This document shows positions 3,766 through 17,849 of a stretch of DNA of 17,849 nucleotides, in pieces. The translations under genes and the position numbers were made by a program. Source of the DNA: a virus (taxonomy: Duplodnaviria; Heunggongvirae; Uroviricota; Caudoviricetes); the IMG/VR virus record IMGVR_UViG_2541047705_000005; one strand, given 5' to 3'. The stretch's first letter is position 1. Each line of letters opens with the position of its first letter. The notes below the pieces were generated by a model. That model was not told the origin of the DNA and searched no databases. It worked only from the letters and a program-made list of their open reading frames with translations.

Positions 3766-3910
3766 TACCCTGAGGGTGATTTACTGTTACCCTGAGGGTA
3801 TTTTTTTATCTTCCCCGTCAATTTTACCATCACCCTTAGGGTAGATTTCCTCCCGATTACCATCACCCTTAGGGTAGATTTCCTTCCGGTAACCATTAGG
3901 CCTGAGGGTA
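3766..3910. promoter_or_regulatory. Array of five near-palindromic ACCCT-N-AGGGT sites (3766-3777, 3789-3799, 3832-3842, 3865-3875, 3900-3909), including a 27-bp direct repeat TACCATCACCCTTAGGGTAGATTTCCT x2, upstream of alpA
   Basis: Read directly from sequence; the dyad symmetry suggests binding sites for a dimeric regulator in the alpA promoter region. Confidence 0.45.
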
Positions 3911-3978
3911 TGAAAATATTCGTTATTTCTGTGCCATGATTACCTCGTCAAATTGAGTAGACGTTATGAGGTAAATAT

Positions 3979-4176
3979 ATGTCAAATACGCTTATTCGTT
4001 TAACAGAAGTTCAGCGTAGAACTGGATATAGCAAGGCATGGATTTATCGCCTTATGGGGCAAGGTAAATTTCCTGCATCAGTTAAAATTGGCTCGCGAGC
4101 TATTGCTTTCGTTGAGAGTGAAATTGACGAGTGGATTAATCAGCGTATTGCGGAATCACGCGGAACAGCTACCTGA
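3979..4176 (+). CDS. alpA: AlpA/Vis-family prophage transcriptional regulator (small HTH protein)
   Basis: 65-aa protein MSNTLIRLTEVQRRTGYSKAWIYRLMGQGKFPASVKIGSRAIAFVESEIDEWI, the characteristic AlpA pattern; GAGGT RBS; position after int is typical for P4-like elements and Gram-negative PICIs. Confidence 0.8.
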   Translation: MSNTLIRLTEVQRRTGYSKAWIYRLMGQGKFPASVKIGSRAIAFVESEIDEWINQRIAESRGTAT

Positions 4177-4253: not shown

Positions 4254-5054
4254 ATGAAATTTCCAAAAACGCCCGTACAGGGGCGGGGCTTCGTTCGGCC
4301 TGAAAACCAGAATCTGCAAAATTTCGGCGAAATTATCCCGATTATTTCCGGCGTTATTGGCGGGAGTGAAACCACTATTGTTAGCGCCAGAGCGTTACAT
4401 AAGGCGTTAGGTGTAGGGCGCGTTTTCCGTTCGTGGATCAAGGGGCGCATTGAAGAATATGGGTTCACGGAAGGCGTGGATTATGAGGTTGTTGAATATT
4501 TGAGCCGACCCGATCCGGTGAGCGCAAAATCTCGCCAGCAAACCGCTCTTGAGTACATCATCACAGTGAACATGGCGAAAGAACTGGCGATGGTCGAACG
4601 TACCGAACAGGGCCGCGCCGTTCGCCAGTACTTTATCAAATGCGAGGAGGAGCTACACAAGGTTGCGCCTGTTCGTTCCGCAGCGTTACGCCGGGAACTG
4701 AAAGCCCGTATCACAGTTGCCAGCTACTTTAAGCCAATGTGTGCCGCGCTGGAGGCGTACCGGGCTGAACTGGGTAAAAACACACTCCAGCACCACTACA
4801 CCACGGAAGCGAACATGCTGGCGCGTATCGTGCTGGGTGGCATGACTGCAAAACAGTGGGCACTGGCGAACGGCATTACAGGCGAACCACGCGACCACAT
4901 GAGCACGTTGCAGCTTGAGCACCTTTCTTACCTTGAGCAGAGCAATATCACGCTGATTGAGTTAGGCCAGGACTACCACCAGCGGAAGGCTGAATTAATT
5001 CGTCTTTCGCAGCGTTGGTTAGCCCGTCGCATGGAGGAAAACAGCCATGTGTAA
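4254..5054 (+). CDS. Phage antirepressor-like protein (AntA/AntB-type N-terminal domain)
   Basis: 266-aa ORF; N-terminal SARALHKALGVGRVFRSWIKGRIEEYGFTEGVDYEV and later ITVNMAKELAMVERTEQGRAVRQYFIKCEEEL resemble antirepressor motifs as I recall them; AGGAG RBS 6 nt upstream. Family assignment is from memory, not a search. Confidence 0.55.
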   Translation: MKFPKTPVQGRGFVRPENQNLQNFGEIIPIISGVIGGSETTIVSARALHKALGVGRVFRSWIKGRIEEYGFTEGVDYEVVEYLSRPDPVSAKSRQQTALEYIITVNMAKELAMVERTEQGRAVRQYFIKCEEELHKVAPVRSAALRRELKARITVASYFKPMCAALEAYRAELGKNTLQHHYTTEANMLARIVLGGMTAKQWALANGITGEPRDHMSTLQLEHLSYLEQSNITLIELGQDYHQRKAELIRLSQRWLARRMEENSHV

Positions 5055-5771
5055 CGCTCTGACCGTTACAAAAAGAGAAAGCGCCCCGTTGCCGGAGCGC
5101 CTTTGTGAACGAATAGCCTACTGCGCCATATTGCTTACTGTCTACGAGGCAGATTATAGCGTTGTGGTCGCACAGAGTGAAGGCGCTGATCACCGTTACT
5201 ACAGCACGCCAGAAATGCAGAATATTTTGCTGCAAAATGTCGTTGGTCACACTGTCCGGAAAGCAAAAAATTTTGCTGGTGGCGCGACTGATGCGATTTT
5301 GTCAGGTCGCCAGGTGCTGATCAATCTGATGTCTGATTTCGTTCTGGATAAAACAAAGGCGACCGCAGAGGGCCGCCAGTGGGAAAGCTACATACTTGAA
5401 CGCATCGCCAACAATGCCAGATTTGCGGCTGGTGGGCAATGTGTCAGCTTTGCACCAATGACTCTATGTTTAACTGAGGGTCATTATGGTGAATATGCTG
5501 GCTTGCTGGTGGGCTATTCCTGCTCTTTAACATTGCCATGCCGCGATGTTTTCCAGGTATGCGACCCCATTTTTGTGCACCTGTACTCTTTAAGGAATTT
5601 CTCAAGGACAAACGCACAGGGCGCGAATCTGTCTGACTCATGCTCGTACGCTATCTTTCTGCGCTGTCTTTTCCGTGCCGGTGATGGTGTATTGGTTGAT
5701 TCTTTGTTGGTCATGGCGCTGCCCTGTAAAATAATGCACCGTAGTTCCTCACACCACGGCACCTATAGTGG

Positions 5772-6044
5772 TTATTCCTGCTCTTTAGCTTTGCGCCGCT
5801 GGAGTTCTTCACGCGCGACGGTGACGAGTTGCCCGATTTCCTCGGCAGCTTTGACTCCGATTTTTTCCACCTGCGCTAGGGCATCGAGCGAAGAAACCAG
5901 GGGATTTTCTCCGCTTCCTTCTGCCTGGCGGCGGGCGATTTCACCGCGAACGGCTGTAATCACGAAAGCGGCTATTGTTTCCCCTTCCGTTTTCGAATTT
6001 TCCATTTCCTCGATTACATCATGGGGGAAGCGGATATTTTTCAT
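5772..6044 (-). CDS. Putative ribbon-helix-helix (CopG/Arc-like) DNA-binding protein, divergent from the replication operon
   Basis: Minus-strand ORF (track 5772..6077); internal start gives MKNIRFPHDVIEEMENSKTEGETIAAFVITAVRGEIARRQ, which fits the RHH N-terminal beta-strand/helix pattern. No clear SD for either start, so the start is uncertain. Confidence 0.45.
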   Translation of the reverse strand: MKNIRFPHDVIEEMENSKTEGETIAAFVITAVRGEIARRQAEGSGENPLVSSLDALAQVEKIGVKAAEEIGQLVTVAREELQRRKAKEQE

Positions 6045-6168
6045 TTGCGATCTGCTGTTGATGTTTCCTGTTGCCATCAGAATGTCCGGTTATTTTGAGG
6101 TGTGTACACATTACACCAAAAGGTGTGTTGATAAAACACTTGACACTGTAGCACACTTAAATTTAATT

Positions 6169-6201
6169 TGTATATACACCAATTGTTGTGGTGTATATAC
6201 A
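6169..6201. promoter_or_regulatory. Perfect 12-bp inverted repeat TGTATATACACC-N9-GGTGTATATACA (candidate operator) in the divergent intergenic region; a TTGACA hexamer lies at 6140-6145
   Basis: Read directly; lies between the minus-strand RHH ORF and the plus-strand operon starting at 6268. Confidence 0.45.
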
Positions 6202-6267
6202 GCAACGCCCCGCAGTGGTGGCACACATGCAGGGCGTCTAACCAAACCGTTAAACGAGGTAACGATT

Positions 6268-6633
6268 ATGGCTGGAACACAGCATACCCAAACTCACCCT
6301 AAATTTATATACACCTTCCTGGCGGTGCACCGTGATTGCATTGCTGACGGTAAAAACACTGTACACGTAGCCGCCGATACGCTGGTTGATGCCTGCGAGA
6401 TGCTCAATGACATGGGCTATATCTCGGCAACATGGAAAGGGCGCGAAGAAAACACGCTGTTTATTCAGAAATGCGAAAACAATTTTATCTGGCGTTTTAT
6501 CGCCCTGAGTACGGCACAACCGCGCGTGATTCACATCGAGGCCACCAGCGAACAGGAAGCACGCCAGCAATCTCCTGATGGCTGCGTGATGGTATTCGCT
6601 GCCCGTATTCGCCAGGAGGTGGAGCATGTGTAA
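6268..6633 (+). CDS. Hypothetical protein (first gene of replication-module operon)
   Basis: ATG at 6268 preceded by GAGGT; it is the 3' part of the stop-free track ORF 5047..6633; the stop overlaps the next start (CATGTGTAA junction). Confidence 0.6.
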   Translation: MAGTQHTQTHPKFIYTFLAVHRDCIADGKNTVHVAADTLVDACEMLNDMGYISATWKGREENTLFIQKCENNFIWRFIALSTAQPRVIHIEATSEQEARQQSPDGCVMVFAARIRQEVEHV

Positions 6634-7631: not shown

Positions 7632-7922
7632 ATGAAAAAGAAAAATTCTGGCTTTACTGCCAGCGGCCTCTCTCGGCCTGAAATCCGCCCCGGTGATATT
7701 TTCCGGGACACCAGACGCGGGGGACGGGTGGTTATTCGTCACGTTACGCCAGGCAATATCACCTACCGCCGTGAGGCTTACGAATATGACTGCGTAATGC
7801 CGCGCCGTCAGTTTGAGCGTGATTTTATTCTGGTGGAAAACAAACAACAGGCAGTGGCGAGACGTGCAGCCACGAATATTAAAAAAATCCGGGCAATGTT
7901 GGTTGCGGGAGGTAAGAAGTGA
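7632..7922 (+). CDS. Hypothetical small basic protein
   Basis: 96-aa ORF; its stop overlaps the GTG start of the primase-like gene. Confidence 0.5.
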   Translation: MKKKNSGFTASGLSRPEIRPGDIFRDTRRGGRVVIRHVTPGNITYRREAYEYDCVMPRRQFERDFILVENKQQAVARRAATNIKKIRAMLVAGGKK

Positions 7923-9724
7923 AAAACGCACCGAATTTAAAATATCAGCCGAAGGATAAATTCACCGAGGTAATCATTTTTGCCGGGACGGATGCTTACG
8001 CCCATGCTCAACACTGGATTGAAAGCGAAGGACGAAAACACGGCGATAACGTGCCTCCTGTTTACCTGGGGCCAAAGCAACTGGCAGACCTGGCGAATAT
8101 CCGCATTGTCGACGATGAACGTCGCTTTGCGCGTGTCTATCTCGCGGGGGAGATAGAGCCAATCCAGATCAATGCTATTGCTGAAAAGCTGGCGCTGGCT
8201 GGTGTACAGGACGCGAAATTATACAAAGGTATCACCGACCGGGAGCCGGAAAACTGGCGCGACTACCTGCAACGGATCCGCGAACAGGCAGAGAGTGGGG
8301 AAGTTTCAGCGATGAAATTAGCCACAAAAAATATTGACCTATCCAGGCCAGCACTAAATCAGATGGGAGCCAGCCAGAGAGGGGAAGTGTTACTTGAATA
8401 TTATGGAAGAGCACTGGCTATAAATGATGATTCTGATGTAGTTCACCATTACAACGGAATTGTCTGGGTGCCTGTATCTGATAAGGAACTCCAGCGGTCT
8501 ATGGCGAAGATTTTTATTGATGCTGGAATCAGTTATTCGCAAAACGCCATTAAATTTGCCGTAGACACAATGAAATTGAGCCTGCCTGTTATGGGCGGGG
8601 CAGACAGGAATCTTATTGGATTCAGTAACGGGGTATTTGATACCCGGACGGGAAATTTTCGGGAGCATAACAAAAATGACTGGTTGTTAAATGCCAGTGA
8701 ATTACCGTTCAGCCCACCAGCAGAGGGGGAAACGCTGGCAACACATGCGCCGAATTTCTGGAAGTGGCTGCGTCGTTCGGTGGCAGATAATGAGCGTAAA
8801 GCTGATCGCGTACTGGCGGCATTATTCATGGTACTGGCGAACCGGTACGACTGGCAGTTATTCCTTGAGGTAACAGGCCCAGGCGGAAGCGGTAAAAGTG
8901 TGATGGCTGAGATTTGTACCATGCTGGCGGGTAAGGCCAACACAGTATCGGCAAGCATGAAGGCTCTGGAAGACGCAAGGGAACGCGCGTTAGTAGTTGG
9001 CTTTTCGCTGATTATCATGCCGGATATGACTCGCTACGCTGGCGATGGTGCAGGAATTAAGGCAATTACTGGCGGCGACAAGGTGGCAATTGATCCGAAA
9101 CATAAAGCCCCCTACTCCACACGTATTCCGGCAGTAGTGCTTGCGGTAAACAATAACGCCATGTCATTCAGTGACCGAAGCGGGGGGATCTCGCGTCGTA
9201 GGGTGATATTTAATTTCTCTGAGGTCGTACCGGAGAACGAACGCGATCCCATGCTGGCGGAAAAGATAGAAGGCGAACTGGCGGTAGTGATTCGCCATTT
9301 GCTAACACGATTTACCGACCAGGACGAAGCTAAAAGACTACTTTATGAGCAGCAAAAATCAGAAGAAGCGCTGTTGATAAAGCGCGAAGGTGATTCACTG
9401 GTGGACTTTTGCGGCTATCTGATGTCGTTGGTTAAATGTGAAGGAATGATGGTGGGCAATGCGGAAATAGTGCCATTTAGCCCGAGGCGATACCTGTATC
9501 ATGCTTATTTAGCCTATATGTCAGCGCATGGCCTGGGAAAACCAGTATCACTGACACGCTTTGGTACTGATATGCCAGGAGCTATGGCGGAATACGGAAA
9601 GGAGTATAAGCGGGCTAAATGCACTAAAGGCCCGGATAAAGGGCGAGTGATAACAAATGTTCTGTTAGATGATGATGCTGATGGCTGGTTGCCAGCAGCT
9701 ACAGGGATTAACGACAGAACATAA
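7919..9724 (+). CDS. Primase/helicase-like replication initiator (P4-alpha / D5-type NTPase family)
   Basis: 601-aa ORF, GTG start after GGGAGGT; Walker A P-loop LEVTGPGGSGKSVMAEI in the C-terminal half; last gene of a coupled operon and followed immediately by an iteron array, as expected for satellite pri/rep genes. Confidence 0.75.
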   Translation: MKNAPNLKYQPKDKFTEVIIFAGTDAYAHAQHWIESEGRKHGDNVPPVYLGPKQLADLANIRIVDDERRFARVYLAGEIEPIQINAIAEKLALAGVQDAKLYKGITDREPENWRDYLQRIREQAESGEVSAMKLATKNIDLSRPALNQMGASQRGEVLLEYYGRALAINDDSDVVHHYNGIVWVPVSDKELQRSMAKIFIDAGISYSQNAIKFAVDTMKLSLPVMGGADRNLIGFSNGVFDTRTGNFREHNKNDWLLNASELPFSPPAEGETLATHAPNFWKWLRRSVADNERKADRVLAALFMVLANRYDWQLFLEVTGPGGSGKSVMAEICTMLAGKANTVSASMKALEDARERALVVGFSLIIMPDMTRYAGDGAGIKAITGGDKVAIDPKHKAPYSTRIPAVVLAVNNNAMSFSDRSGGISRRRVIFNFSEVVPENERDPMLAEKIEGELAVVIRHLLTRFTDQDEAKRLLYEQQKSEEALLIKREGDSLVDFCGYLMSLVKCEGMMVGNAEIVPFSPRRYLYHAYLAYMSAHGLGKPVSLTRFGTDMPGAMAEYGKEYKRAKCTKGPDKGRVITNVLLDDDADGWLPAATGINDRT

Positions 9725-9751
9725 TACGAAATTTATAAGCTGAAACGTAAA

Positions 9752-10090
9752 GGTAGACGGTTGGTAGACAGATTCACTTAACCCTCTACCAACCATCTAC
9801 CAATTAATATTTTGAATTATAAAGATATTTTCAATGTGGTAGAGAGGTAGACAGTTATTTCTATATTCCTACACCACGGGGGGTATATAAAAAACAGATA
9901 GTTAAGGGGGCATTTTTTAAATTTCTCTTTTAACTGTCTACACTGTCTACCATTTAGTAAAAATCATTAATTATCAATGTATTAATGCGGTAGACCGTTG
10001 GTAGACAGTTTGCAGATTGTTTTTTTGTTATGTGTTAATAACATTAAATAAATCAATCAATTATATCGGTAGACAGTTGGTAGACAGTTG
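9752..10090. repeat. Iteron array: six copies of a ~20-bp unit GGTAGAC-N3-4-GGTAGACAG in both orientations (9752-9773, 9784-9801 inv, 9838-9856, 9933-9951 inv, 9989-10010, 10068-10090) separated by AT-rich spacers; putative replication origin
   Basis: Read directly; iterons plus AT-rich spacers immediately downstream of the primase/helicase-like gene match origin architecture of P4-like satellites and PICIs. Confidence 0.5.
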
Positions 10091-12775: not shown

Positions 12776-12868
12776 ATGCTTTTCGTTTCATTTATTGCAA
12801 TTGTCTCTGGTATCATTTCAATTTGTGCAATAATTGCAATTATTGTCATTCAGAAGGGATCATCATGA
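12776..12868 (+). CDS. Possible 30-aa hydrophobic peptide (MLFVSFIAIVSGIISICAIIAIIVIQKGSS)
   Basis: In-frame ATG inside track ORF 12629..12868; single TM-like helix; its TGA overlaps the next ATG (ATGA). Weak SD; speculative. Confidence 0.3.
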   Translation: MLFVSFIAIVSGIISICAIIAIIVIQKGSS

Positions 12869-13032
12869 AAAATCACGGAGTAAAGCCAGTTTTACTTTCC
12901 CGGAGGCAGATCGAAGCCCTGCAACGCATCCAGGACGAAGAGCGTCAGAAATCTGTGCTTGGTGTGGCACCGTCGATTCATGTTACTGCCCGGCAACTGA
13001 TGGATAAGGCACTTAAAGAGGTGAGGCTGTGA
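12865..13032 (+). CDS. Small 55-aa protein (MKNHGVKPVLLSRRQIEALQRIQDEERQKSVLGVAPSIHVTARQLMDKALKEVRL)
   Basis: 3' part of track ORF 12709..13032; ATG at 12865 preceded by AGAAGGGA; stop overlaps the GTG start of the next gene. Confidence 0.45.
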   Translation: MKNHGVKPVLLSRRQIEALQRIQDEERQKSVLGVAPSIHVTARQLMDKALKEVRL

Positions 13033-13301
13033 AATTAAATATCAGAGTGGATAAACGCCAGCTATGGCAGAAAAAAGAGAACAGCGAGGCATTCAGGGCT
13101 TTGCTGGTGGAAAATCTTCGGCACCGGTTCAGTGGAGAGTTGCCAGATGCACTGGGGAAGAAACTGGAATCCCTGACAGTGGAAATTGGCGATTATGGCT
13201 TTGTTGATGTTGAAAGCACGACTGCCAACACAGAAATCGTAAAACAGGTCGTCAATGATGTAATGAAAACCACGCTTAGCCAGCCATCCTGGCGCAACTG
13301 A
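13029..13301 (+). CDS. Hypothetical 90-aa protein
   Basis: ORF-track ORF with GTG start overlapping the upstream TGA (GTGA); followed by a hairpin. Confidence 0.5.
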   Translation: MKLNIRVDKRQLWQKKENSEAFRALLVENLRHRFSGELPDALGKKLESLTVEIGDYGFVDVESTTANTEIVKQVVNDVMKTTLSQPSWRN

Positions 13302-13309
13302 ATCAGTAA

Positions 13310-13330
13310 GGGGCGGTTATTGCCCCTTTC
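13310..13330 (+). terminator. Terminator-like hairpin (GGGGC-N7-GCCCC followed by TTTCCTCC)
   Basis: Read directly; T-tract is weak. Confidence 0.3.
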
Positions 13331-13400
13331 CTCCATACCCACAACGCATTCCCTTTCCGCATGAAATTATTTTTTATCGTATATGCATGAGGTGAGCTAC

Positions 13401-13928
13401 ATGTTGATGAGTAAAGCCGAATACGCCAAATACAAAGGCGTAAGCCGCCAGACAGTTTACGACTGGCTCGAGAAAGGCGAAGTGGTCATGTCCGGTAAAA
13501 AAATTGATGTGGAAGCGACAGAGCAGCGGAACAGCCCACCAGCACAGGGGAAAGACACCATTTCTGAAATGTGGCCAGAAAGAACGCTGGAAATGACATG
13601 GGGCGAGTTCTGGAAAGCAGTTAAGGCCAGAGACGGTAAAATTCCTGCGCCAGTAACGGACGAGGGCATACAGCAGCATGTGCTGTATGCAGCCGGGGAA
13701 TTAGGCTGGGAAGTGCACTTTCTTGATGATGGTGCTATCTGTCTTGAGGATGATGAAGGGCAGCATTACTTTGAAAAATACAATTTGCGAGGTAATGCCA
13801 GGCTGGCAATTCGTATGCTGCGTTGCGAACTCTGCTATGTTGCCAGCGATTGTCCCGATGAACAGGACACATGGAGTGAGGCAGGACTAAACGCCTTGGC
13901 TGAATGGGAAAAATCAGGCCATCAATGA
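13401..13928 (+). CDS. HTH DNA-binding protein with Nu1/TerS-like N-terminal pattern; candidate packaging-redirection (Rpp-like) or regulatory protein
   Basis: Track ORF 13383..13928; I prefer the ATG at 13401, 7 nt after GAGGTGA. N-terminal MLMSKAEYAKYKGVSRQTVYDWLEKGEV resembles the lambda Nu1 wHTH pattern (KKQLADIFGASIRTIQNWQEQG) in spacing of conserved positions; followed by a dense repeat array. Confidence 0.55.
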   Translation: MLMSKAEYAKYKGVSRQTVYDWLEKGEVVMSGKKIDVEATEQRNSPPAQGKDTISEMWPERTLEMTWGEFWKAVKARDGKIPAPVTDEGIQQHVLYAAGELGWEVHFLDDGAICLEDDEGQHYFEKYNLRGNARLAIRMLRCELCYVASDCPDEQDTWSEAGLNALAEWEKSGHQ

Positions 13929-13933
13929 CCTCA

Positions 13934-14190
13934 AAAAGTGTCAAGTTGAGCAGTTTGCCAGGTTGACACTTTACACTCTGAACGCGAAAAAGTGTCAACC
14001 TCGCTGGATGCCTCGCCATTACTGGCCTTGTACCATATTCACCACGTCAAAAAACCGAAAAAATAGCGAAAAGTGTCAAGTTGCCATGCTTAGAAATGCT
14101 AAGGTTTGATAAGGTTTTTCGCGAAAAAGTGTCAAGTGTGTCAACCTGCGGTATTAAGATTTATTAAGGTCTTAAGCCGGAAAGTGTCAA
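13934..14190. repeat. Array of seven GTGTCAA core repeats (six direct, one inverted; consensus CGAAAAAGTGTCAAC) plus TAAGATTT-N-TAAGGT repeats; candidate packaging (cos/pac-proximal) or regulator binding region
   Basis: Core copies at 13938-13944, 13963-13969 (inverted), 13992-13998, 14073-14079, 14129-14135, 14138-14144, 14184-14190; read directly. Confidence 0.5.
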
Positions 14191-14221
14191 CCAGCCCCTA
14201 AGATTTCCTAAGGTGTAAATC

Positions 14222-14401
14222 ATGACCATCACCGAAGCCGATATGCTGGAGATGCTCCGCAGCATTGCCGAAATCAAACAACCAGCAAGCAAAATTAACA
14301 GGTGTTCAGCGCCTGTTTCCGTTGTGCTGCAACAGGAACGCCACCAGCATGATGATGTGAGGCCGTATCAGTGGAAGAAACCGGACAGGCTGCGGCGATA
14401 A
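14222..14401 (+). CDS. Possible 59-aa protein (MTITEADMLEMLRSIAEIKQPASKINRCSAPVSVVLQQERHQHDDVRPYQWKKPDRLRR), absent from ORF track
   Basis: ATG at 14222 is 6 nt downstream of TAAGGTG; ORF is 60 codons, presumably just below the track's length cutoff. Confidence 0.35.
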   Translation: MTITEADMLEMLRSIAEIKQPASKINRCSAPVSVVLQQERHQHDDVRPYQWKKPDRLRR

Positions 14402-14750
14402 AGGGTTGTTTAAAAGGTAGTTCAAAATTGAGTTCGCTAGCCGTCTAGCTTATCGATGCGTTAATTGGTTGATATTTTTTATGTCGTAATATTGTGTTCT
14501 GTGGCTGGTGGGAGTTTATGTTGAAAACTACCGATTCTGATAGGCTTTTTGCCATACGTATGCAGGAGAATTGACCATGTGAAGCAGGCAGGCATGTTGA
14601 GGAGAGCACTTACGCAGGATTGCTTAATCATTATTGAAAGACTCTGTGTTTCAAGTATCCTAATCAGTTAACTTCAGGAGCAAATTTTGAGCTTATACGG
14701 ATCCCCGTATTATGAGCCTCAATTGAAAATTTTGGGTAAGTGATTTAAAG

Positions 14751-15977
14751 ATGATTGCAGGCGCGAAAAGAGGGAGAAACGAACGCAAGGGGCTTCACTC
14801 TTGGCATCCATACTATGCGGGCTATTCAGAGTCATTTGTGGCTTCTGTTTTGCAGGCTGAAGGAGTTAAGTCGTCCGCTACCGTTCTTGATCCTTGGATG
14901 GGAAGCGGTACCACTGGTATAGTTTGTCAAAAGCAAACCATAAAGTGTATTGGAGCAGATATTAATCCTGTAATGAGCTATTTTGCTGCAGCCAAAAGTA
15001 GGGATAATATTTCAGCGCTGGATTATACCGGAGAGCAACTCCTGGAAAGGATACTGCTTTGCTTTAGAAAAAAAACAAAAGATATAACTGAGTCATCGAA
15101 GGGCTATCCACTTATTGAACAGTTACAAAAGTTTTATAAATGTATCTGTGATCAGTTTATGGATAAAGGACAAAATGATATCGTAAATCCTTTAAAAGCA
15201 TTTTATTGCAGTGTTTTATTTTATACTGTTCGCAATGTCCTTGATGTTAGGTCAACTTCAAATCCTACATGGATTTCTAAAAAAGTAGACTTTAATAATA
15301 AATTTGATATTTGTTTTGAATATAATAAAAATTTTAAAATTATGCGTGAGCAGTTAAGTGAATATTATGGCAGCGCTAATGGGGGGGCATGTTACTCGAT
15401 TTTAAACGTGGATAGTAAAAAATTAAATATTAAAAGTAACACAATTGATCTTGTTATTACATCGCCACCGTATTTAACACGAATAGACTATGCCGTTTCT
15501 ACTCGTCTTGAGTTGGAAATAATTTTAGGGAGTGAGGGATATAAGTCTCTTAGAAAGGAAATGATGGGCACGACGACTGTGCCTAAAGTTGCGGATGAAA
15601 TTAATAAAAAATGGGGGCCATTGTGTATGGATGTTTTGTCATCGGTAACATCGCATACATCAAGAGCATCTGGAAGTTATTACCTTAAAAATAAAATTAG
15701 ATATTTTTCTGATGCGTATGAGTCATTAATGGAAATCTTTAGAGTTTTAAAGGTAGGTTGCTCTGGTTATTTTGTAATACAAAATTCATATTATAAGGAA
15801 ATAGAGATTCCGCTTTATGATATTTATTGTGAAATGGCGCTTTCTATTGGGTTTTCAGAAGCGAAATGTGTGAGAGAAGATCAAGTTAAAGCAATATTTG
15901 GACAAATAAATACCAAGTCAAAAAATTATATTAAAGATAAAGTTTATTTTGAAAAAATCATAAGGATAACAAAATGA
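14751..15977 (+). CDS. DNA methyltransferase (amino-methyltransferase: N4-cytosine or N6-adenine), motif I before motif IV
   Basis: 408 aa; SAM-binding motif I VLDPWMGSGTTG (14889-14918) and catalytic motif IV SPPY in DLVITSPPYLTRIDYA (15462-15473); AT-rich codon usage; stop overlaps next start (ATGA). Confidence 0.8.
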   Translation: MIAGAKRGRNERKGLHSWHPYYAGYSESFVASVLQAEGVKSSATVLDPWMGSGTTGIVCQKQTIKCIGADINPVMSYFAAAKSRDNISALDYTGEQLLERILLCFRKKTKDITESSKGYPLIEQLQKFYKCICDQFMDKGQNDIVNPLKAFYCSVLFYTVRNVLDVRSTSNPTWISKKVDFNNKFDICFEYNKNFKIMREQLSEYYGSANGGACYSILNVDSKKLNIKSNTIDLVITSPPYLTRIDYAVSTRLELEIILGSEGYKSLRKEMMGTTTVPKVADEINKKWGPLCMDVLSSVTSHTSRASGSYYLKNKIRYFSDAYESLMEIFRVLKVGCSGYFVIQNSYYKEIEIPLYDIYCEMALSIGFSEAKCVREDQVKAIFGQINTKSKNYIKDKVYFEKIIRITK

Positions 15978-17086
15978 ATGACGTAACTAAATTGCTATCT
16001 CAGATAGATGAAAAAAGAGATGAGGTAGTAACTGATTCTTATACCATATCATGGCGTGAAGTAATTAATCTATATAAAGAAAATGAGATAACCATTTCTC
16101 CAGACTACCAAAGGCTTTTTCGTTGGGATAACGCAAGACAAAGCCAATTTATCGAGTCATTACTTTTAAATATACCTACGCCAACACTTTTTTTCTACAT
16201 TGATAATAATGGTAAGCAGGAGGTTATCGATGGATTGCAACGTGTGAGTACTATAATTAGATTTTTTTCAGAGGATATTTTTAATAAGGAAGAAATAGAT
16301 AATGCAAAGAAACAAAACTCTGTAAATGATGTCCGTAATCCAACTGTTCTTGATGATGTGCCTATAATTACAGAATTAAATGGATGGACTGCAAAAGGAT
16401 TGCCGGACAAAGTTAGCCGAACTATAAAAAATGCGCGAGTAAATGTTGTTATTTTGGAGCAAGAAACAAAACCTGAAACTAAATATAATGTTTTTAAACG
16501 ACTGAATAGGTCTGGTGTTCGTTTGAGTGACCAGGAAATACGTAATTGCATGGCTAGATTAGCAGGGAATGAATTTGCAGATCGCTTACGTAAGATGGCC
16601 GAAATTGATGGTATTGTTCAAGCTCTTGGAATAAATGAAGATGGCCAAAAATCTCAAGGTGTTGAGGAAGCTTTGCTACGAGTTATGGCATCTTTGACTT
16701 ATGCGGATAAATTTAGCCATAGTGTAACTGACTTTTTGGATGAATTTATGTTCTACGCGGCAGAACATAATGTTATTGATATTAATTTTGAATTAAAAAT
16801 AAAAAGAACTTTTGATTTGATAAATATTGCTGGTTTATCTGGTAAAGCATTTAAATTTAGAAAGGATGGTGCTCCAAGTGGCCCGTTTAGTACTAATTTA
16901 TTAGATGTTGTTGCTGTTGGTATTTTTAGTAATGTAGATAATTTAACACCTGCTGAGGTGGCGAAAAGATTTGATTATTTAATGGATGGTGAGATCAAAG
17001 AATTAAGAGCTTGTACTGGTTCTGGATCTAATACTAAAGCCAAATTAGAGAAAAGAATCGCTCTTGGGAAGAAGGTGTTTGGATAA
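15974..17086 (+). CDS. DUF262 (ParB/Srx-like NTPase domain) protein, stand-alone (no DUF1524/HNH domain evident)
   Basis: 370 aa; N-terminal signature PDYQRLFRW...IESLLLNIPTPTLFF...VIDGLQRVSTII (DGQQR-type motif, 16229-16243); AAGGA RBS; translationally coupled to the methyltransferase. Confidence 0.8.
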   Translation: MNDVTKLLSQIDEKRDEVVTDSYTISWREVINLYKENEITISPDYQRLFRWDNARQSQFIESLLLNIPTPTLFFYIDNNGKQEVIDGLQRVSTIIRFFSEDIFNKEEIDNAKKQNSVNDVRNPTVLDDVPIITELNGWTAKGLPDKVSRTIKNARVNVVILEQETKPETKYNVFKRLNRSGVRLSDQEIRNCMARLAGNEFADRLRKMAEIDGIVQALGINEDGQKSQGVEEALLRVMASLTYADKFSHSVTDFLDEFMFYAAEHNVIDINFELKIKRTFDLINIAGLSGKAFKFRKDGAPSGPFSTNLLDVVAVGIFSNVDNLTPAEVAKRFDYLMDGEIKELRACTGSGSNTKAKLEKRIALGKKVFG

Positions 17087-17087
17087 A

Positions 17088-17849
17088 ATGAGAATATCAG
17101 ATTTCGATGATTTCAAGGTGATGTTGGAAAAGACGAAAAATGAAAGTCTTGGATTCCTTGAGAGCATAAAGTCTATTAATGAGTTTATGTCGAGATCAGG
17201 TGATAAAGACAAGGAGGATATGTTTAGAATAATATCGGTCCCAATGATTTATTCTTCTTGGGAGGGTTTTTTTACTGAAACAATGTCAGTTTGCTTAAAT
17301 ACATTGAAACTCTCAGATAGAGAAGCATTTAGATACTCTGCAGAAATTCGAGCACTTTGGTTGCAACGAGAACCATTTTATAGCAAGTATGTAGATATGA
17401 TAAAAAATATTTATGATGCTGACTCACACCGAAGCATTGTCCATAATGGCGCCCAAATAAAAAAGAAAGTTACGAAGGGGGCGTTTAAACTAACAAGTGA
17501 GGTAATTCAACACATTGACAGGTTTAATAAATCCACATTATCAGATTGCGATGTTTCTGAATTAGTTATGACATTTTCCAATGTGAATGAAATGGTTGTC
17601 AAGGTGAATTTCGATGCTATAGGTTTGGATTATTCATTACTTGATTTATCGCAACTAGGTGAGGTTGTTGGCCTTAGAAATTCTTTGGGACATGGGGAGT
17701 TTAAAAGTAGTGTTAACCCTAGGAAATTTAATTCAATAATTGTGTATGTGGAAAATCTGATCATCGATTTGAATCAATGTGCTATAACGTGGTTGGATAA
17801 ATTAGAAGATGAAATAACTAAGCCTGAAGATAATGAGACTATTCAGTGA
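17088..17849 (+). CDS. Predicted all-alpha protein with C-terminal Rx4H motif (LRNSLGHGEF); putative HEPN-domain RNase effector
   Basis: Track ORF 17064..17849 uses a TTG; I prefer the ATG at 17088, 10 nt after GAAGGTG. R-N-S-L-G-H at 17676-17693 fits the HEPN Rx4-6H motif; stop TGA is the last codon of the window. The HEPN call rests on motif and composition only. Confidence 0.5.
   Translation: MRISDFDDFKVMLEKTKNESLGFLESIKSINEFMSRSGDKDKEDMFRIISVPMIYSSWEGFFTETMSVCLNTLKLSDREAFRYSAEIRALWLQREPFYSKYVDMIKNIYDADSHRSIVHNGAQIKKKVTKGAFKLTSEVIQHIDRFNKSTLSDCDVSELVMTFSNVNEMVVKVNFDAIGLDYSLLDLSQLGEVVGLRNSLGHGEFKSSVNPRKFNSIIVYVENLIIDLNQCAITWLDKLEDEITKPEDNETIQ

Follow-up and report, generated by a model that had tools for sequence, protein, structure and literature searches.

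Multi-box pac systems are familiar from SPP1, in which G1P works with pacL and pacR, from P1, in which PacA is paired with hexamer repeats, and from the TerS of SaPIs; in P4, the iterons of crr are the same as those of ori. Closer to the locus considered here are lambda gpNu1, with the R3, R2 and R1 elements of cosB, and the Rpp (redirecting phage packaging) proteins of phage satellites (RppA, RppB and RppC; PDB 6HLK, 6HN7), which bind the TerS of the helper, block packaging of the phage and promote that of the island. Closer still in integration site and general layout is EcCIMP1, a PICI that has been mobilised experimentally with the helper phage Kapi1; its excision required alpA and int, and its packaging module, according to the authors, resembles none characterised (PMC11773190).

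The locus described below lies in a window of 17,849 nucleotides, by which is meant the whole stretch of DNA that was analysed, and consists of a gene for a predicted DNA-binding protein followed directly by nine copies of a short motif. The pairing of gene and motif recurs in satellites of many enterobacterial genera, the protein very probably binds the motif, and the pair may, on a reading that is held tentatively, mark satellite DNA for packaging. No description of this protein family or of its motif was found in the searchable literature.

A satellite at tRNA-Thr

In E. coli PD23, a locus that adjoins proA and tRNA-Thr matches the window at 100% identity. One copy of the att core TCCTATTATC lies at 1428-1437 and a second at the window-equivalent position 18214-18223, just beyond the window's end, and the island is thus ~16.8 kb long. 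Its order runs from integrase, int-alpA RNA motif, AlpA-type HTH, AntA/B, Icd-like, DUF4222 and D5-type primase through ProQ/FinO, PerC and several unassigned genes to the HTH gene and array, a 59-aa ORF, a methyltransferase, DUF262 and HEPN. The features needed for what follows, other than the HTH gene and array themselves, are these.

1611-2825, int
3979-4176, AlpA-like HTH gene, beside int
7919-9724, D5-type primase
9736-10090, PICI-type origin, with GGTAGACnGTT iterons in both orientations around a 30%-GC core, directly 3' of the primase gene
12865..13032, plus strand, 55-aa ORF; in a tblastn survey it preceded the HTH gene at almost every locus of either protein family, and EcCIMP1 has it too
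13029..13301, plus strand, 90-aa ORF directly 5' of the HTH gene, kept in the module as found in E. coli and in Serratia
13310-13326, GC hairpin after the 90-aa ORF
14222..14401, plus strand, 59-aa ORF, short and homologous to the last gene that is conserved among enterobacterial PICIs; it ends ...PYQWKKPDRLRR

The island carries no capsid, tail or lysis genes and, judged from the sequence of its integrase, AlpA, primase and origin and from its size, is a PICI-type phage satellite integrated at tRNA-Thr. The arrangement of integration, Bro, replication and late regions is that of Gram-negative PICIs and helper-embedded satellites (bioRxiv 10.1101/2022.07.18.500453), and an origin built of iterons around a core corresponds to the layout given in the legend to Figure 2 of PMC6092414.

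The 55-aa ORF seems to open the late or accessory zone; neither it nor the 90-aa ORF has a Pfam or PHROG match. The 59-aa ORF matches phrog_7271 (E=5e-6) and phrog_1561 (E=2e-5), and its sole lead among phages is the cf-PICI record vB_KppS-Ant, sequenced from an induced lysate, in which the homologue is again the last gene and stands just before int. That match helps synteny and is silent on function.

The two-domain protein and the array beside its gene

The gene, the protein domains that it encodes and the elements of the array are listed here.

13401..13928, plus strand, HTH gene for a 175-aa, two-domain predicted DNA-binding protein (ORF, Shine-Dalgarno sequence and RefSeq CDS)
13401..13532, plus strand, N-terminal winged helix-turn-helix, residues 1-44, almost invariant within the family
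13581..13916, plus strand, C-terminal alpha/beta domain, residues 61-172 (secondary structure of the model, pLDDT >94)
13938..14219, no strand assigned, array of nine AAAGTGT(C/A)AA(C/G)(C/T) sites (motif counts, and a logo from 327 sites in 52 distinct arrays)
14015..14025, no strand assigned, GCCATTACTGG, a conserved block that is not a repeat and lies in the spacer separating the left cluster of sites from the right
14089-14103, no strand assigned, palindrome CTTAGAAATGCTAAG, part of a second, interleaved motif set (14089..14219)
14100-14120, 14155-14175 and 14199-14219, no strand assigned, three 21-nt copies of the TAAGATTT-N-TAAGGT repeat (TAAGrTTTnnTAAGGT units; repeat analysis)

The open reading frame spans 13383-13928, and a GAGGTGA Shine-Dalgarno sequence precedes the start at 13401, giving 175 aa; the same gene is the RefSeq CDS WP_021518387.1 of the identical PD23 locus. 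RefSeq labels the protein either 'MerR family transcriptional regulator' or 'hypothetical', and its homologues form 112 clusters, confined to Enterobacterales and nearly all without a name, one UniRef entry among them being labelled 'Repressor'. Residues 1-42 are almost invariant in the homologue alignment and the remainder is divergent. In the AlphaFold model (pLDDT 88), residues 1-44 fold as a winged helix-turn-helix and residues 61-172, with confidence, as an alpha/beta domain; the linker, residues 46-57, is disordered.

The best PHROG match is to phrog_57 (E=5.2e-6, residues 1-42), a profile whose identity as the lambda Nu1 family was checked with Nu1 as control (1.3e-76 over residues 1-181), and which authentic RppA matches at 3.9e-8, likewise in its N-terminal part only. 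Weak PHROG matches to excisionase families were also returned, and comparison with the PDB places the winged fold as near to excisionases, P2 Cox and BldC, an equal nearness to regulatory and recombination multi-site binders that was counted against a packaging role. For the C-terminal domain there was no significant match in the PDB or in BFVD (Foldseek against the PDB, E at least 0.48); a profile search with it reached only 43 clusters among 1.84 billion representatives, a small family without annotation in which some relatives are stand-alone proteins of ~140 aa. One protein that joins an AntA domain to the C-terminal half (P0078) was judged a one-off deletion fusion. PDB sequence searches with the 175-aa protein and with the protein of the second family described below gave no matches, and tblastn found no homologue of the 175-aa protein in 50,697 phage genomes; on that survey of sequence the protein is satellite-specific, as Rpp is according to PMC6739421.

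Seven exact GTGTCAA cores lie in the array (13938+, 13963-, 13992+, 14073+, 14129+, 14138+ and 14184+), one of them inverted and one pair just 9 bp apart, and the sole copy elsewhere in the 17.8-kb window is at 6140. Over the whole window 1.95 copies would be expected, and a count of 8 was reached in none of 200 shuffles. The pattern GTGT[C/A]AA adds 13970- and 14213+, which brings the sites to nine, and related loci use the GTGTAAA variant freely. The nine sites fall into a left and a right cluster with ~80 bp between them. Into the right-hand GTGTCAA sites the TAAG units and the palindrome are interleaved, forming composite units of ~55 bp, and a GCTTAGAAATGCTAAGG block comes after GTGTCAA sites in E. 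coli, Klebsiella, Pantoea and Enterobacter loci. The spacer block is kept as GCC(A/G)TTACTG, between diverging flanks, in the arrays of Escherichia, Klebsiella/Raoultella and Pantoea. GC content is 43-49% across the array, which has no AT-rich unwinding region; a consensus scan of it found no sigma-70-like promoter and no terminator, and Rfam no RNA family. A blastn search with 13900-14750 against 50,697 phage records returned no match; since no part of that region resembles a sequenced phage, no cos or pac shared with a helper is demonstrable.

Much of this had been read from the letters alone in an initial annotation, whose span of 13401-14221 was accurate: the seven cores that it counted, one inverted and two in tandem, were all recovered by exact match, the TAAGATTT-N-TAAGGT repeats that it reported proved to be three 21-nt copies, and the Nu1-type winged-HTH spacing that it saw at the N-terminus is borne out by phrog_57 as the best match over residues 1-42, RppA matching in the same way.

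The pairing of gene and array extends well beyond the window. Among loci from other species and from IMG/VR, the motif lies downstream of homologues in 51 of 52 distinct arrays, the proteins ranging from 37 to 100% identity, and gene and array occur together in Escherichia, Klebsiella, Raoultella, Enterobacter, Lelliottia, Pantoea, Rouxiella, Buttiauxella and other genera. The arrangement follows a plan in which the first site comes 9-22 nt past the stop codon and is followed by one or two inverted sites, one direct site, a gap of ~80 bp and then two to five direct sites; the logo of 327 sites in the 52 arrays reads AAAGTGT(C 0.79/A 0.21)AA(C/G)(C/T). A second protein family, 186-209 aa long, has a different C-terminus and an HTH that is 41% identical and keeps the SRQxxYxW helix; its best profile match is likewise phrog_57, and the same array lies immediately upstream of its own HTH gene. 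That two families share one HTH type and one motif, in both orders of gene and array, makes binding of the motif by the HTH very likely, and from this sequence comparison the 175-aa protein very probably binds the AAAGTGT(C/A)AA(C/G)(C/T) sites.

What lies 3' of the array varies in identity and in orientation, and the gene is convergent at L024-L026, L093, L011 and L012, so no single regulated gene goes with the array. Of 5,426 complete E. coli genomes, 170 (~3%) have the module, in up to four copies each, PD23 and O104:H4 2011C-3493 being among the carrier strains; it is also found in Klebsiella, Enterobacter, Serratia, Pantoea and further genera, and its setting is always a phage satellite with anti-phage defence or virulence cargo. 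A scan of IMG/VR for the inverted motif pair recovered no true phage with an array near terminase genes; its matches were mostly the same islands, together with unrelated AT-rich elements whose TTGACAC repeats resemble origin iterons.

A candidate packaging module and its rivals

The place that the module occupies is the chief reason for considering packaging. At the right end of EcCICFT073, in the CFT073 genome, rppA (144 aa) lies ~90 bp after an exact cosN and is followed by a second cosN, which is inverted, then by a gene of 93 aa, attR and the chromosome. The 93-aa last gene (phrog_1561 at 4e-54) is homologous to the 59-aa ORF of the window, the two having the ending ...Y(H/Q)WKKP(E/D)RLRR in common, and because each module directly precedes this homologous last gene, the HTH gene and array fill the rppA/cos slot of EcCICFT073. 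In Klebsiella satellites the order is HTH gene, array and DUF5681 gene, and phage homologues of DUF5681 are found where the genome starts, in the position of terS, and overlap or abut TerL; the lie of that array upstream of a terS-like gene also suits a regulator of that promoter and was counted against packaging. In a PICI integrated at yicC, a head-protease-like DUF2213 gene is followed directly by the HTH gene, and a satellite inserted in a lambda-E-type capsid gene carries the second-family module in the same late zone.

The best explanation, advanced tentatively and with a likelihood somewhat short of even, is that the HTH protein and its array mark island DNA for encapsidation as a functional analogue of Rpp-cosB or TerS-pac, and the evidence for it is positional and by analogy only. 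Such a Nu1/Rpp-like winged HTH would occupy the nine sites right after its own gene, a multi-protein complex would assemble on ~280 bp of island DNA, and that complex would mark the DNA for encapsidation. The variable C-terminal domain might then, speculatively, contact a packaging protein of the helper phage, either TerS or TerL, the DNA would be cut within the array or close to it, and the block conserved in the spacer would be a candidate site for the cut or for a host factor. With nine sites in two clusters and both orientations, a second motif and a spacing of ~55 bp, the array looks, by analogy, more like an architectural site of the cosB or pac kind than like a simple operator. The initial annotation had taken this stretch for the island's packaging recognition region, a proposal that stands as far as the winged HTH, the repeats conserved across genera and the cos-rppA-cos slot are concerned, and that falls short in that the protein belongs to neither the Rpp nor the TerS family, no cosN is present and the DNA has no resemblance to phage. 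A bolder form of the packaging reading, and a doubtful one, is that a satellite-only protein, made up of a Nu1-like winged HTH and a new domain for docking to the helper, polymerises on the nine-site array and so creates a packaging start de novo, unrelated to Rpp or to phage TerS. Were it true, PICIs and helper-embedded satellites without a lambda-type cos could be packaged by non-lambda helpers, and this would account for how the abundant 'type C' PICIs, EcCIMP1-like islands among them, are mobilised although no known packaging module is present in them.

Against packaging must be set the view that the pair is a transcription factor with its operators, which would repress, activate or insulate distal late or accessory genes (the terS-like gene, the last gene and the defence cargo) and take no direct part in packaging; it is on balance unlikely, though still the main contender. 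The RefSeq name of MerR-family regulator and the 'Repressor' homologue in UniRef point this way, as does the presence among the nearest folds of BldC and P2 Cox, whose control of promoters works through several direct repeats, and the array of the window, like that of Klebsiella, lies directly 5' of a co-oriented gene. In the second family the array 5' of the HTH gene itself is a classic layout for autoregulation, but the family represented in the window has no site upstream of its HTH gene. Nor does the array contain a sigma-70-like promoter, and nine sites in 280 bp together with a conserved non-repeat block exceed what an operator usually needs, while the gene downstream differs by locus and is in several cases convergent, and the model of the protein appears to lack both the dimerisation helix and the effector domain of MerR. 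As a regulator and nothing more, the module would be an HTH-operator pair of the ordinary kind, of use chiefly in marking the boundary of the cargo hotspot. Interference alone is improbable: here the array would serve as a decoy on which the protein sequesters a packaging or replication protein of the phage, to the benefit of the host or of the island, and island packaging would not be directed by it. The phage-blocking activity of Rpp (PMC6739421) lends this some colour, as does a C-terminal domain that is variable and is also found stand-alone, and the module does adjoin defence cargo, both in the window and at other loci (MTase/NsnA-like/HEPN, OLD-like, KAP NTPase); yet PADLOC has no match for the module, and a decoy has no obvious need for nine conserved cis sites beside its gene.

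Two further uses of repeated sites are less probable again. That the array is a second origin or an enhancer like the crr of P4, with the winged HTH protein as origin-binding factor, is very unlikely: two clusters of repeated sites are indeed iteron-like, and TTGACAC arrays surround AT-rich DNA near replication genes in unrelated viral contigs (L049, L073 and L129), but a typical PICI origin is already present after the primase gene, and the array is 4.2 kb from that gene, differs in motif and has neither the base composition nor the AT-rich region expected of a site of unwinding. Slimmer still is the chance that the protein is a recombination directionality factor or accessory of the Xis/Cox type and the array its sites. 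The weak PHROG matches to excisionase families speak for it, and set against them are a protein two to three times the size of such factors, with an extra domain, the AlpA-type gene that the island has of its own beside int, and the location of the array, which, at 4.0 kb from attR and 12.5 kb from attL, is not at attP.

Comparison with known systems

Among proteins that bind several sites through an excisionase- or MerR-like winged HTH fold, Pukovnik Xis, P2 Cox and Streptomyces BldC consist of one domain each, are 50-90 aa long and work at attP or at promoters, whereas the protein described here has an extra domain of 110 aa and an array far from att and without an evident promoter. Membership of the excisionase/RDF group (HTH_17, Xis, AlpA, Cox) was rejected, the protein not being small and single-domain and the array lying at least 4.0 kb from either att core, and so was the MerR family, whose long dimerisation helix and effector domain do not follow the winged HTH and whose operator is one dyad within a long-spacer promoter. 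Origin iterons were likewise set aside, the AT-rich region and adjacent primase being found at 9736-10090 and not at the GTGTCAA array. The multi-box pac systems offer a likeness of design, in that short-repeat clusters surround a conserved spacer that is a potential cut site and the site lies in or beside the gene of its recogniser; they differ in having no sequence or fold relation to the present protein, in which no oligomerisation ring domain is recognisable.

To gpNu1 and the R3-R2-R1 elements of cosB the likeness is closer, the winged HTH belonging to the same profile family and several copies of a recognition element lying beside the gene, in the second family even in the order array and then gene, as with cosB and Nu1; motif and site number differ. 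Assignment as a Nu1-type TerS was nonetheless rejected. The profile match stops at residue 42 and there is no match to Pfam Phage_Nu1 at E < 0.1; the modelled C-terminal domain is alpha/beta and seems to contain no coiled coil, the self-association and gpA-binding regions of Nu1 being lacking; and there is no terL in the window and no homologue in the 50,697 phage records. The comparison of profile and structure with TerS, Nu1 and Rpp that had been proposed as a check of the packaging reading thus came out in favour for the N-terminal HTH only, the C-terminal domain being unrelated. A search for lambda cosN (GGGCGGCGACCT, with at most one mismatch) gave only chance-level matches in the window, the full island and all fetched related loci, in agreement with the earlier remark that no lambda-type cosN was seen by eye; the same script recovered three copies in CFT073, two around rppA and one in a resident lambdoid prophage. 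This absence of cosN, the absence of phage-like DNA and a C-terminal domain unlike the partner regions of Rpp or Nu1 were counted against packaging.

EcCIMP1 shares with the island the tRNA-Thr site, the att core TCCTATTATC, an integrase gene 94.6% identical in DNA, the general layout, the 55-aa gene and homologues of the last gene, and alpA and antA are weakly alike. It differs in its primase and in its late zone, where P22-like ejection genes have been captured, and as a direct precedent it was rejected, being without the HTH gene and array. The module has a bearing on the mobilisation of PICIs in which no known packaging module is present.

The nearest relative in general character is Rpp. 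Both proteins are satellite-encoded and satellite-specific, both carry an N-terminal Nu1-like winged HTH with a phrog_57 match confined to the N-terminus, and they are similar in size (144-153 aa for Rpp, 175 aa here) and in place, coming after PerC and the late genes, beside a cis site and directly before the conserved last gene. Membership of the Rpp family was tried and rejected: BLASTP against CFT073 RppA gave E=0.061 over 35 residues, hhalign of a 35-sequence family with a 13-sequence Rpp family gave 57% over 28 HTH columns only, and phmmer with the 175-aa protein found no match to 6HLK or 6HN7. The C-terminal domain here is alpha/beta, unlike the dimerisation region of Rpp, and in place of the one R3-like site that Rpp has beside lambda cosQ-cosN there are nine copies of a 12-bp motif. 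What appears to be new, to the extent that sequence can tell, is a satellite Nu1-like protein and cis site that occupy the packaging slot, differ in partner domain and in the architecture of the site, and lack a lambda cos. Should they prove to be a packaging module, they would show that the problem which Rpp answers has been solved a second time, independently, and would provide a simple pair of cis site and trans factor for the testing and engineering of satellite transfer.

Relatives of the module, some apparently within prophages

In the Klebsiella pneumoniae locus L021 (10864-11700) the end of the island adjoins a fragment of a major capsid gene encoding 180 aa, followed by tail genes, and in two further K. 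pneumoniae loci, L020 and L022, baseplate genes are duplicated within the island. Each of these three relatives seems to be a satellite that sits inside a myovirus prophage or has become fused with one. The second protein family has a related HTH and another C-terminus. In L090 (11084-11785) its module belongs to a satellite inserted into a lambda-E-type capsid gene, of which only positions 111-329 of the Phage_cap_E profile are left, and in L078 (3262-11274) it lies amid a myovirus tail gene cluster, with tail-fibre assembly and sheath genes on either side.

Two other sequences concern the module itself. The E. coli protein P0078 (226 aa) consists of an AntA domain joined to residues 88-175 of the 175-aa HTH protein; a deletion seems to have linked the early part of the island with the HTH gene. 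L048 (IMG/VR contig IMGVR_UViG_3300029877_000173; 17,086 bp), which is metagenome-derived and called 'viral', carries the module in identical form and at the window's own coordinate; hence the window itself is probably a provirus call of the same sort and not a packaged genome.

Integration region and probable control region

1462-1581: direct repeats between tRNA-Thr and int
2870-2937: int-alpA RNA motif (Rfam RF02996, 45.5 bits), just 3' of the integrase gene
3766-3911: five copies of the palindrome (T)ACCCT(G/T)AGGGT(A), two 33-bp tandem units among them

The direct repeats, likely arm-type sites of the integrase, comprise two copies of GTCTACTYAAGTA... 64 bp apart and the tandem repeat TTGGGGGTAYTT. 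The palindromes sit between a 267-aa ORF and an AlpA-type HTH gene and probably form the main region for regulation or induction of the island.

Other reading frames and cargo

5047-6633: 528-aa open frame
12865-13032: 55-aa ORF (MKNHGVKPVLLSRRQIEALQRIQDEE...), 5' of the HTH gene
14751-17849, extending to about 17.85 kb in strain PD23: three cargo genes

The 528-aa frame is probably not a gene, since RefSeq annotates only its final 121 codons (Icd-like) together with two small genes on the opposite strand. Nearly all loci of both protein families have the 55-aa ORF on the 5' side of the HTH gene, and an ORF of this kind stands first in the late zone of EcCIMP1 as well, a PICI at the same tRNA-Thr site; a family match was sought for the window copy and none was found. 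Its product might work as the module's partner or bind the TAAG-type motifs. Together, the three cargo genes resemble a defence system. One encodes a type II methyltransferase and another a MAE_28990/MAE_18760-type HEPN nuclease; the third product, a DUF262 protein, matches NsnA (1e-55) and PD-T4-2_A (1e-41) in PADLOC.

Likely replication origin

9736-10090: 30%-GC core flanked by GGTAGAC(A/C)GTT iterons, about a dozen, some in each orientation

Replication of the island very likely starts in this region, which lies directly 3' of the D5-type primase gene; its iterons and core have the same arrangement as published E. coli PICI origins.
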